Source of the DNA: Escherichia coli
GTDB lineage: Bacteria; Pseudomonadota; Gammaproteobacteria; Enterobacterales; Enterobacteriaceae
Length of the DNA: 64,000 bases
Assembly (NCBI RefSeq): GCF_044324875.1
Contig: NZ_CP172185.1
Strand: one strand, 5' to 3'
Shown one piece after another: positions 17,856 through 20,401 of the stretch (its first letter is position 1; each line of letters begins with the position of its first letter). Under the pieces are notes generated by a model that saw only the letters and a list, made by a program, of their open reading frames with translations, was not told where the DNA came from and made no database searches. Both the position numbers and the translations under genes were made by a program.

Positions 17856-18311
17856 TTATTCAACACCTGAATCCCCCGCCGCTTCTCTCCCCTTTATAAA
17901 ACGCCCCTTCCGGAATCCAGACCGCTGCAGTGCACGACGAAGATGACCGTATACCGTCTTGTCATTCTGCCCCGTCTCTTCTGTAATCTCCGCAATACTT
18001 AAACCTCTGTAATACCGGTTCAGTACCGCTCTGCGCTCTTCCAGCGTCAACACACCTCCGGCCGCTCTCAGATTCAGCATCGACTTATTCAGAATACAGC
18101 AGGCCTCTCCGGTAAAAAGAATACGAACAATATCTGTATACTCATCATCACAGAATACAAAATAATATCTGAATGACCTGCCTGACTGCACCCTTCTTCT
18201 GTCTGATATGGCATCTTCTATATATCTGATTCGACTGCTTACGGTTCCAAATATCTCTCGCAGGGCTTTTTCAAAATAAATATCTCTCGTCGCCAGGATT
18301 ATATCCAGCAT
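17856..18311 (-). CDS. Putative DNA-binding protein with C-terminal LuxR/sigma-70 region-4-like HTH
   Basis: C-terminal segment LTLEERRAVLNRYYRGLSIAEITEETGQNDKTVYGHLRRALQ fits a LuxR-type HTH; lies downstream of the adhesin gene. Confidence 0.4.
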   Translation of the reverse strand: MLDIILATRDIYFEKALREIFGTVSSRIRYIEDAISDRRRVQSGRSFRYYFVFCDDEYTDIVRILFTGEACCILNKSMLNLRAAGGVLTLEERRAVLNRYYRGLSIAEITEETGQNDKTVYGHLRRALQRSGFRKGRFIKGREAAGDSGVE

Positions 18312-18372
18312 CTCTGTACCTCATTATATCCCGGGGGACTCCCCCCGGGACAGATATCTAAATCCTGACCTG

Positions 18373-19914
18373 TCAGAACTCAAAATTCACACCAGCATTC
18401 CACGATGCGGATGACCCACCTGCAGCAACTGCAACTTTTCCTGCCACATTCTCTGTGAAACGGTAGCCCACGCCCACCGCAATGGCCTGCTCATCACGGT
18501 AACCACCAACGGCTGCTGTCGCGTTAAATTTTCCAACACTGTATGGCTGGAAAAGACCTGCCAGTGCCGCGCTCTGGGCTGCACTCTCCCTTAACTCCTT
18601 CCGGTTCTCTTTAATCTGCTCCTGCATATTATTCATTCTCTCTGTCGCCATCTTCTGCCAGGCTTCCGTCAAATCCAGACGATGACTGTTATTCCTTATC
18701 GCTGCTGTATTTGAGGCTATTGCTGCATCCGTCTGCGCCCTGTTCTTCACAAGCACATCGCTGAGATGTTCTGCCTGGCTTTTCGCTTCTTTACGGGCAT
18801 CCCGTACACTTTTATCTGTATAAGCCCGGGAAACCTGAACTGTTTCATCCGCTTTTTCTTTTATTTCATCCTGAAGAGCAAGAGAAGATGCATCCGTATA
18901 CGCCACCGCTGCCGATGTGCCTGCAATAATATCCCTGCTGAGTTCATCACGTACTGCTGTAACCTGACTGTCAGTATGAGCACGGGCATCTCTGTATACA
19001 CCGCCTATCTCACCGCGCAGACTGTCTCCCTCTGCCTTCAGTTCATCACGTACTGCTGTGACCTGACTGTCAGTATGAGCACGGGCATCTCTGTATACAC
19101 CGCCTATCTCACCACGCAGACTGTCTCCCTGTGATTTCAACTCATCACGTACTTTGTTCGTCCCATCCTTTATCTCATCCTGAAGTGCAAGCGCTGTTAC
19201 ATCTGTATACGTCACCGCTGCCGATGTGCCTGCAATAATATCCCTGCTGAGTTCAGCATGAACTGTTGAAAGACGTTTATCTGTCTCGTCAATTCTTTCA
19301 TTCGTCTGCAACAAAAAGACCTGTGCATCATCAAATCGTTCATTCAGTTGCCCTACCGTCGCTGCATCTGTGTTATTGATACCATCAGACACATTTATAA
19401 TCCGGCGGGTTTCCGGTGCTCCTTTGACACTCTTTCCATATCCCTCAGGCCCGGCACCAACAGATACCACGTTATTTTCTCCCGACACCTGTGAGCCATG
19501 GCCCAGAGCTACAGAGCCTGAAGAATTTTCTATTCCAGCCCATCCCCCAATAGCAACACTCTGCTGTGAATTAAATACCTCAGCGCTCTTACCTATGGCA
19601 ACACCATATTTTGACTCAGCCTGACCGGTATCCCTTCCCAGGGTGACACTGTGTGGAGAATTATACACTTCCGAAAAAGAGCCAAACTGAAGACTTCCTG
19701 GTGAATCCATGTTAAAAGCGCCACCTCCCAAAAGGAAAGTGTTATTAACTGTACCAGTTAAATTCGTAATAAAAGAGTTTTCTCCAATCAGTAAGCTGGA
19801 AGAATTACCATCAACAGGCCCTGTCAAAACAGCCTGAGCCTGAGCCGAGAGCAGCAGGGCCACACTCACTGCCAGCGCGCTTTTCTTTAAAAAAGCATCA
19901 CGTCTTTTAAGCAT
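18373..19914 (-). CDS. Trimeric autotransporter adhesin (YadA-like; Eib-like prophage adhesin)
   Basis: Start refined to ATG at 19914 (AGGAGA 8 nt upstream); signal peptide [28 protein letters not shown]; head repeats, coiled-coil stalk with 33-aa duplication, C-terminal beta-barrel anchor ending ...AGVNFEF. Confidence 0.75.
18941..19138. repeat. 99-bp tandem duplication inside adhesin stalk
   Basis: Two near-identical 99-bp units encoding [33 protein letters not shown]. Confidence 0.85.
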
Positions 19915-20401
19915 TCTGTTATTCTCCTGTATTATTACTTCACCAGCCAGAACGGTAGTGCGGAGCAAAAATACAGTGATAAGAATCCTCTTTTATTAAT
20001 TTAATAATGCCAGGAATATTATTGTGTATAATATGCGCCCTCAATTTAAGCAGCAGAAAACGACTGGGATTAAAATCCTTAAATTATAAACATATACAAC
20101 TTTGTAAAGGTGGTTATAATAAACCTGATTACTTTAACGTCTGTATACCTGCACTGCTGATATCACAAAACAATAAAAATCCTGGGTAATATCTCTGATG
20201 ATTGAATGAGAAATTCACGATGTCTGGTGAGAATTCTGTTCAAAACGAGGAATGCAGACGTACACGTGGCAGGTATGGACTTCCACCGATTTAACTTTTT
20301 TCCTTCCTTGTATTTACACATCACACATTTTGCGCTACAAAAATTTCACGTGGCACGCACCACGTGATCCGTAGAAAAGCCTCTTGTTACGAATTTCGTA
20401 A

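Follow-up and report, generated by a model that had tools for sequence, protein, structure and literature searches.

When a gene for a trimeric autotransporter adhesin (TAA) is found beside the tail-fibre genes of a lambdoid prophage in Escherichia coli, the question arises whether it encodes an immunoglobulin (Ig)-binding Eib protein or another kind of surface adhesin, and whether the small gene that accompanies it has a part in its expression. This question is raised by a 64,000-nucleotide stretch of E. coli contig NZ_CP172185.1 (assembly GCF_044324875.1; hereafter the window), in which a TAA gene is followed by a gene for a 151-aa protein with a helix-turn-helix (HTH) domain. The pair had been described from the sequence alone (the original prediction) as a prophage-borne, Eib-like adhesin lying immediately past the tail-fibre assembly gene tfa, with an adjacent LuxR-type regulator. 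The TAA-HTH pair is real, intact and of a known kind, and does not constitute a new kind of system; taken as a whole, it is probably a two-gene accessory cassette of the type that lambdoid prophages carry past their tail-fibre genes. The TAA very likely belongs to the lineage of adhesins carried in Eib cassettes and, as judged from its sequence, is a member of that radiation and not a canonical Eib.

The window TAA is a YadA-type trimeric autotransporter (type Vc) encoded by an intact gene. The original prediction had extended the feature to 19968, the limit of a mechanical open reading frame (ORF; 18373..19968) that would yield 531 aa if opened at a TTG; the gene itself stood, with its strand corrected to minus and its start to the ATG at 19914, which has an AGGAGA Shine-Dalgarno sequence about 8 nt upstream, opens the coding sequence ATGCTTAAAAGACGTGAT and is the start used in the RefSeq coding sequences (1542 nt) of the same gene. 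Residues 1-28 were read by eye as a Sec signal peptide, with K3, R4, R5, K10 and K11, a hydrophobic core and cleavage between AQA and V. They are followed by 15-residue repeats of the form SV(A/T)(L/I)G... at aa ~88-150, typical of a YadA-like beta-roll head, by a neck at aa ~153-192 and by a coiled-coil stalk at aa ~193-452 with YxD/HxD motifs. The Pfam YadA_stalk (PF05662) neck motif was matched at 171-192 (E 2.9e-5), and a profile search located the C-terminal trimeric autotransporter anchor, YadA_anchor (PF03895), at aa 455-513 (E 3.5e-16). Sequence searches of the PDB retrieved the YadA anchor 2lme (E 2e-17) and neck fragments of SadA (E 7e-8). These matches and the sequence reading bear out the description of a 513-aa YadA-like TAA with a signal peptide, a repetitive stalk and a C-terminal anchor. 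The NCBIfam YadA model scored 78 bits against a cut-off of 750. A protein 100% identical to the window TAA is present in the public protein collection (E. coli, P0010), under the NCBI name 'YadA-like family protein'. The AlphaFold2 (AF2) model of the TAA monomer, of low confidence (mean predicted local distance difference test, pLDDT, 51), was taken for secondary structure only; it has a strand ladder at 40-152, a helix at 184-452 and no beta insertion in the stalk, and a Foldseek search with it gave generic beta-solenoids alone, at E>1.

The original ECOR-9 GenBank records P-EibA/C/D/E (AF151091, AF151674-6) served as the Eib comparison set. Their layout is orf-191, stem-loop, eib, stem-loop and orf-156, followed by orf-60 and eaa; on the minus strand of the window the order is tfa, a 779-bp leader, the TAA gene, a hairpin and the 151-aa HTH gene. 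The window tfa product is 57-60% identical to ORF-191 (ORF-191A/D). The placement of the adhesin 'immediately past tfa' is valid for gene order alone, because the AT-rich, non-coding leader intervenes. A small HTH gene does follow the adhesin as predicted, starting 61 bp past the TAA stop. Further downstream, a putative mini-ORF for a strongly hydrophobic peptide stands in place of the orf-60 (small membrane protein) of the P-Eib loci; no family match was obtained for it, and the homology of the module with prophage-type loci extends down to ~17637.

The resemblance of the adhesin itself to the Eib proteins is uneven. Identity of the TAA with EibD is 29% over 445 residues; with EibC it is 30%, with EibA 33% and with EibE 39% over the C-terminal 213 residues. 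Saa (25.5%) and YadA are more distant from it than the Eib proteins are; a Saa- or YadA-like assignment, at 25-30% identity, was rejected as weaker than that to Eib. Only the C-terminal ~90 residues show high identity, with the anchor and the last left-handed coiled-coil heptads ~65-70% identical and 23-29 of 40 residues shared with EibA/C/D/E in the last alignment blocks, and tblastn with the TAA detects residues 299-488 of it alone in the Eib records. The EibD structure 2xqh is absent from the PDB sequence matches of the TAA at E<=10, and 2xzr was matched at E 0.18. Eib proteins have a conserved C-terminal region that includes a saddle minidomain (PMC12511318), and nothing in the TAA corresponds to the saddle sequence TVGV.DGKLTRAEGA.KTIAVNDGLVALSGR when it is aligned with EibA/C/D/E. 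The substitution D391A abolishes Fc binding by EibG, and a primer places the key Asp in GRTDRID (bioRxiv 10.64898/2025.12.25.695649). In the same alignment, the segment DRIDYAVGAI of the Fc motif GRTDRID(Y/A)AVG, which holds the IgG-Fc-binding Asp and Tyr/Ala, falls in a 10-residue gap of the TAA, and alternative alignment registers put Ala or Ile at the position of the Fc-binding Asp. The Eib N-terminal domain (NTD), which lies ahead of the beta-roll head or takes its place, was not found in the TAA: Eib residues 1-120 have no similar stretch in it, and no more than ~10 residues separate the signal-peptide cleavage site from the head repeats. Since the NTD, the saddle and the Fc-binding Asp are absent, Ig binding of the TAA is not to be assumed. 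The term 'Eib-like' therefore applies to the cassette slot and to the homology of the tfa and HTH genes, and not to the adhesin as a protein; close kinship with the Eib adhesins was not supported, in view of the low overall identity, the different signal peptide and the missing Asp.

The 151-aa HTH protein aligns end to end and collinearly with ORF-156A/C/D/E at 22-26% identity, and the motifs MxxILATRxxYxExxL and LTxxE...KTV are common to both. A profile search recovers the 151-aa and the ORF-156 types together, and the family comprises 44 representatives among 1.84 billion proteins; the word-based search had yielded proteins at least 94% identical alone, the more distant relatives being reached by the profile. 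The family profile also matches LuxR-type proteins (P0168-P0170) at E ~1e-4, and tblastn of the HTH protein against phage genomes gave no match. The best Pfam match of the protein is Sigma70_r4_2 at 87-130 (E 4e-7), with no match to GerE (PF00196) at E<=10 and none to Response_reg. NCBIfam sigma models scored 16-21 bits, with cut-offs of 43-222, and identity as a sigma factor was rejected because region 4 alone matches and the scores lie far under the cut-offs. The AF2 model (pLDDT 78) consists of a beta-alpha-beta N-domain (1-75) and a C-terminal tetrahelical HTH. The top Foldseek matches of this model in the PDB are all full-length NarL/FixJ regulators (FixJ, RcsB, DesR, StyR, EvgA and NarL), at weak values (E 3e-3 to 6e-2, template modelling (TM) score ~0.3), while its AFDB fold matches are led by ORF-156-like uncharacterised proteins, followed by LuxR-type regulators. 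Asp55 lies after beta3, where a phospho-acceptor would be expected, and does not vary within the family; the beta1 acidic pair is replaced by T-R/K-D/N, and the receiver-like domain ends after beta4 (~75 residues, four strands). Because the acidic pair is missing and the receiver is truncated, the HTH protein is modelled as an atypical orphan regulator of the NarL/FixJ kind, probably phosphorylation-independent. The label 'LuxR-type' was roughly right: the fold matches favour it, and the absence of a GerE match and the preference of Pfam for sigma-70 region 4 do not.

A divergent member of the HTH family, P0136, comes immediately after an Eib-like TAA (L016), and two others follow genes for RTX-type secreted repeat proteins, which hints at a link of the family with surface-protein cassettes. 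In L015 (2195..3208), the distant member P0144 is preceded by an RTX-like repeat protein of >690 aa, and the next gene encodes a 169-aa GerE-type protein whose short N-domain is similar; this suggests tandem small regulators adjoining a secreted repeat protein. In the searched literature, which did not include the original Sandt and Hill papers, no functional study of the ORF-156 family was found.

The leader is mosaic between all loci compared. A scan of the coding strand upstream of the TAA detected no consensus sigma-70 promoter site; the best promoter-like match on manual reading reaches just 8 of 12 positions and was not counted as evidence. In an Rfam scan of the module and leader, no family came close to its gathering score. 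Directly after the tfa stop, at 20653..20680, there is a perfect hairpin with a 10-bp stem; since its T-run is on the plus strand, it would stop antisense transcription into tfa and not the phage late transcript. The hairpin between the TAA and HTH genes (centroid fold -27.7 kcal/mol, z -2.5) occupies a position equivalent to that of a stem-loop annotated in the P-Eib records, of which the P-EibD version has a U5 tail.

At an identity of at least 99% in nucleotide sequence, the HTH gene occurs at 287 places in 183 of the 5426 complete E. coli genomes (~3%), with up to six copies per genome (five to six in GF4, NZ_CP172217.1, and in NZ_CP033635.1). Its neighbour in every locus inspected is a YadA-like gene, and at the loci inspected in multi-copy genomes the TAA has a different head. 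Many of the carriers are chicken isolates or avian pathogenic E. coli (APEC). In the window itself, the TAA and HTH ORFs have both remained intact amid heavy decay by insertion sequences (IS), which, with the conservation of the HTH gene, is taken to favour selection on the pair.

Comparison of TAA alleles from other genomes (alignment A1) revealed at least three unrelated head types and zero to four copies of a 33-aa stalk repeat, with proteins of 410, 480, 513, 546 aa and other lengths, while no variation is seen in the signal peptide or in the C-terminal ~190 residues. By analogy with the YadA family, the TAA would be exported by the Sec pathway through its 28-residue signal peptide, three C-terminal anchors would form one outer-membrane barrel, and the passenger would be displayed as a 'lollipop' with a small beta-roll head, a neck and a coiled-coil stalk of ~260 residues. 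Gain or loss of the 33-residue (99-bp) repeat would set the length of the stalk, so that reach beyond the surface would vary between alleles, and the head would be exchanged by recombination while the signal peptide, the C-terminal stalk, the anchor and the partner gene stay nearly invariant. The most likely role of such a protein, as read from sequence, is adhesion or autoaggregation, and possibly serum resistance; canonical binding of IgG Fc appears unlikely. An adhesin or aggregation factor without canonical Fc binding is the description that we favour by a small measure.

The alternative that the window TAA is a genuine Ig-binding Eib, with non-immune binding of IgG/IgA Fc and serum resistance as in EibA-G, draws on the same cassette slot and flanking gene families as in P-Eib, on the Eib-like anchor and last heptads, on the greater distance from Saa and YadA, and on the label 'immunoglobulin-binding protein' that NCBI has given to some fragments of the window TAA family. 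It has to be set against the low overall identity, the unmatched EibD passenger (2xqh), the gap at the segment whose Asp is essential in EibG, the lack of saddle sequence and NTD, and the failure of ClaA and ClaB, which lack these residues, to bind IgG Fc; it is regarded as unlikely. Less probable still is the alternative of a pair that has lost its function and is decaying, left over from a dead prophage and caught among IS elements. Copies of IS256, ISL3, IS66 and IS21 do surround or split the neighbouring genes, island copies are devoid of tfa and of all other phage genes, and the promoter scan was negative; against this, neither ORF is shortened, a good ribosome-binding site precedes the TAA start, an identical TAA exists elsewhere, the HTH gene is conserved at its many places in other genomes, and the module is intact in at least three different flanking contexts.

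Whether the HTH protein acts on its neighbour is a more evenly balanced matter. On the grounds of conserved linkage it may, somewhat short of an even chance, regulate the TAA, in which case it would control transcription of the cassette from the AT-rich leader. A comparable share of our confidence, again below one half, goes to an HTH protein that has nothing but its slot in common with the adhesin, either a prophage 'moron' regulator with targets among phage or host genes or a sigma-like factor. This would fit the hairpin between the genes, which is terminator-like in P-EibD, the presence of family members beside non-TAA genes such as those for RTX-type proteins, the IS elements that separate an intact TAA from an intact HTH gene in strain 23CRST007, and the sigma-factor-like label given by Pfam and NCBI. 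The order TAA then HTH is, however, kept at ~22-40% identity across the window type, the four P-Eib loci and L016, the neighbours found so far are all secreted surface or adhesin-type proteins, and the sigma-like variant is ruled out by the low NCBIfam scores, with region 4 alone matched. Natural regulation of Eib expression is described in the literature as complex and unresolved. IbrAB are the sole reported activators of eib genes, which was not used as evidence; the IS-rich island of L001 (strain 702/18) that carries the TAA-HTH module also contains an IbrB-like pseudogene (4820..5347), about 10 kb away from the module.

Several points weigh against the account of an adhesin cassette with its own regulator. 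Adhesion, aggregation and non-binding of Ig are all deduced from the protein sequence, and as Eib proteins bind IgA via other stalk segments, some Ig binding may occur here as well. Because AF2 modelled the TAA monomer poorly, absence of the saddle is judged from sequence and from secondary structure of low confidence. Action of the HTH protein on the TAA promoter is a proposal drawn from linkage, its fold matches are weak (E ~3e-3 at best) with Pfam preferring sigma-70 region 4, and no consensus sigma-70 site was found ahead of the TAA on the coding strand. Co-transcription of the two genes is uncertain, because a strong hairpin separates them, the equivalent of which in P-EibD is a true terminator.

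The genomic setting of the module (Table 1) bears on its description as prophage-borne. A sit/aerobactin virulence island (390..14011), itself containing an ISL3 fragment, abuts the adhesin module via IS remnants, with ISL3, IS3-type and IS256 elements between the shiF-like gene and the module. On the other side, the tail-fibre gene is interrupted by an IS66-family element, homology to the intact genes of L004/L005 resuming at 25513..25780, and the J gene by an IS21-family element; the lambdoid prophage extends past 63 kb of the window and is probably defective. A second IS21-like transposase pair was observed in the prophage early region (57999..59800, plus strand). Intact lambdoid prophages elsewhere carry paralogous cassettes, in the order J, lom, tail fibre, tfa, TAA, the identical type of 151-aa HTH gene, DinI and host genes. 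Module copies of the island type retain the last ~80 nt of tfa alone (to 20773), followed by a transposase fragment. About 30 complete genomes carry the window allele (~99%) with the same aerobactin/IS256 left flank, and two other strains have the same truncated tfa junction between a lysozyme-inhibitor gene and transketolase genes; the island/prophage junction of the window was found in no complete genome of the collection.

Table 1. Features of the window around the TAA-HTH module
Feature	Position	Strand	Basis or remark
sitC/sitD-like metal ATP-binding cassette permeases (sitCD)	390..2122
iutA-iucDCBA (aerobactin)	4711..12745	-
shiF-like major facilitator superfamily gene	12818..14011	+
Conserved TAA-HTH module, as in islands without phage genes	17637..20773	-	blastn against L001, L003, L010, L017-L019
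Putative mini-ORF, 31 aa, strongly hydrophobic, MKITKAAFIFALSVWSVAVICLLLFVLVVLG	17650..17745	-	read from sequence; inside the conserved module
DNA-binding protein, 151 aa: receiver-like aa 1-75, HTH aa 87-130	17856..18311	-	Pfam, AF2, ORF-156 alignment
GC-rich hairpin CCCGGGGG-GAGU-CCCCCGGG between TAA stop and HTH start, without U tract	18328..18352	-	sequence, fold
TAA gene, 513 aa	18373..19914	-	ORF, Shine-Dalgarno, Pfam, PDB match, identical protein P0010
YadA-type membrane anchor codons (aa 455-513)	18376..18552	-	Pfam; part of the TAA closest to Eib proteins
99-bp tandem repeat, 2.2 copies, 93% matches	18941..19153	-	Tandem Repeats Finder; encodes the 33-aa stalk repeat
Leader/promoter region, 779 bp, AT-rich (GC 0.37-0.39), non-coding	19915..20693	-	composition, scans, folds
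Leader hairpin, then AAUUUUUG	20346..20367	-	fold
Tail-fibre assembly gene tfa (DUF4376, 191 aa), ORF-191 homologue	20694..21269	-	PHROG tail-fibre families, E 1e-62
Collagen-repeat (GXY) side tail-fibre gene, split by IS	21284..25780 (pieces 21284..22780, 25513..25780)	-	PHROG, NCBIfam
IS66-family (ISCro1-like) element	22814..25512		8-bp duplication GAAGAATC on both sides
Phage J (central tail fibre) gene, split by IS21-family element	25819..32371	-	J C-terminal fragment 25819..26226
IS21-family istA, inside J gene	27154..28800
IS21-family istB, inside J gene	26382..27380

The module in the window is accordingly described as an island allele, known elsewhere as a prophage-end remnant beside the sit/aerobactin island and here re-joined to a lambdoid prophage that insertions of IS66 and IS21 elements have damaged. 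The term 'prophage-borne' thus holds for its physical linkage to the lambdoid prophage and is misleading as to the allele, which is of the island type. The most parsimonious history would comprise three steps: formation of the prophage-end remnant, its gain of the aerobactin/IS256 flank, and, in the genome of the window, its re-joining to a prophage by recombination within the mosaic leader that paralogous cassettes share. As the leader is mosaic in all loci, this recombination history is proposed on grounds of parsimony, which also counts against the account given here, and no single crossover point could be named. An inversion between cassettes in isolates DG351-2 and DG341-1 was rejected as an artefact of the splitting of BLAST matches.

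A wider proposal, which we put forward as doubtful when all its parts are taken jointly, would unite these observations. The ORF-156 and 151-aa proteins would be a small family of truncated-receiver LuxR-type regulators that travel in cis with horizontally transferred secreted-adhesin genes (prophage TAAs, and RTX-type genes elsewhere) and switch them on from AT-rich, probably silenced leaders; the adhesins would form a lineage that does not bind Ig, is enriched in poultry-associated E. coli, and is tuned in reach by the 33-aa stalk repeats and in specificity by head swapping; and the paralogous cassettes, up to six per genome, would serve as recombination substrates that re-join islands and prophages. 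If the reading of the locus favoured here is right, the automatic labels 'immunoglobulin-binding' and 'Eib-like' overstate what is known of the window TAA lineage, and claims of serum resistance or Ig evasion for carrier strains would need testing, because the Fc-binding residues and the saddle are missing. The ORF-156 family, which has stood beside eib since 2000, would then become, as a cis-linked NarL-like regulator, a candidate for the control of Eib expression. The locus would further illustrate how a phage 'moron' can outlive its phage, become incorporated in an iron-uptake virulence island and, by way of its shared leader, return to another prophage.

Among known systems, the Eib loci are the nearest in arrangement, with tfa (ORF-191), a long leader, the TAA, a stem-loop and an ORF-156-type gene at the lambdoid tail-fibre end, and EibC/D/E share the YadA-like beta-roll head and neck with the window TAA. 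The signal peptides differ (MLKRRDAF... in the window TAA, MSKKFT... in Eib), the stalk of the window TAA is built from 33-aa HxD/YxD repeats, unlike that of Eib, the partner HTH protein is only distantly similar to ORF-156 (22-26% identity), and orf-60 and eaa of the P-Eib loci do not lie downstream in the window cassette. The HTH protein resembles NarL/FixJ regulators, especially atypical orphans such as the RcsB- and EvgA-like ones, in its predicted fold, where a receiver-like alpha/beta domain would precede a tetrahelical HTH, and in fitting the pattern LTxxExxVLxxxxxGLSxxEIxxxxGxxxKTVxxH; it differs from them in its truncated receiver, its missing beta1 acidic pair and its lack of GerE and Response_reg matches, and its structural matches to them are weak.

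The EibG-like adhesins include the Cla and Yal lineages (Kotaka et al., bioRxiv 10.64898/2025.12.25.695649; PRJDB37405). ClaA and ClaB have a pronounced saddle and do not bind IgG, because the Fc residues are not conserved, and Yal proteins have no saddle and are said to group with Saa (bioRxiv 10.64898/2025.12.25.695649). Like the window TAA, both are oligomeric coiled-coil Eib-like adhesins without the Eib NTD. Identity with ClaA or ClaB was rejected, as the termini derived from their cloning primers, MKNNDRKY and MKINRHGI at the start and, for ClaB, ...VGVNWEF at the end, differ from those of the TAA. Yal, compared by description only, shares the apparent lack of a saddle and is compatible in architecture; it is said to group with Saa, whereas the window TAA is closer to Eib. 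Finally, YadA of Yersinia has the same succession of signal peptide, left-handed parallel beta-roll (LPBR) head, neck, YxD coiled-coil stalk and four-strand anchor, with an identity of 28-30% over the C-terminal third and low outside the anchor; YadA is encoded on the pYV plasmid, whereas the window TAA is chromosomal and phage-linked.

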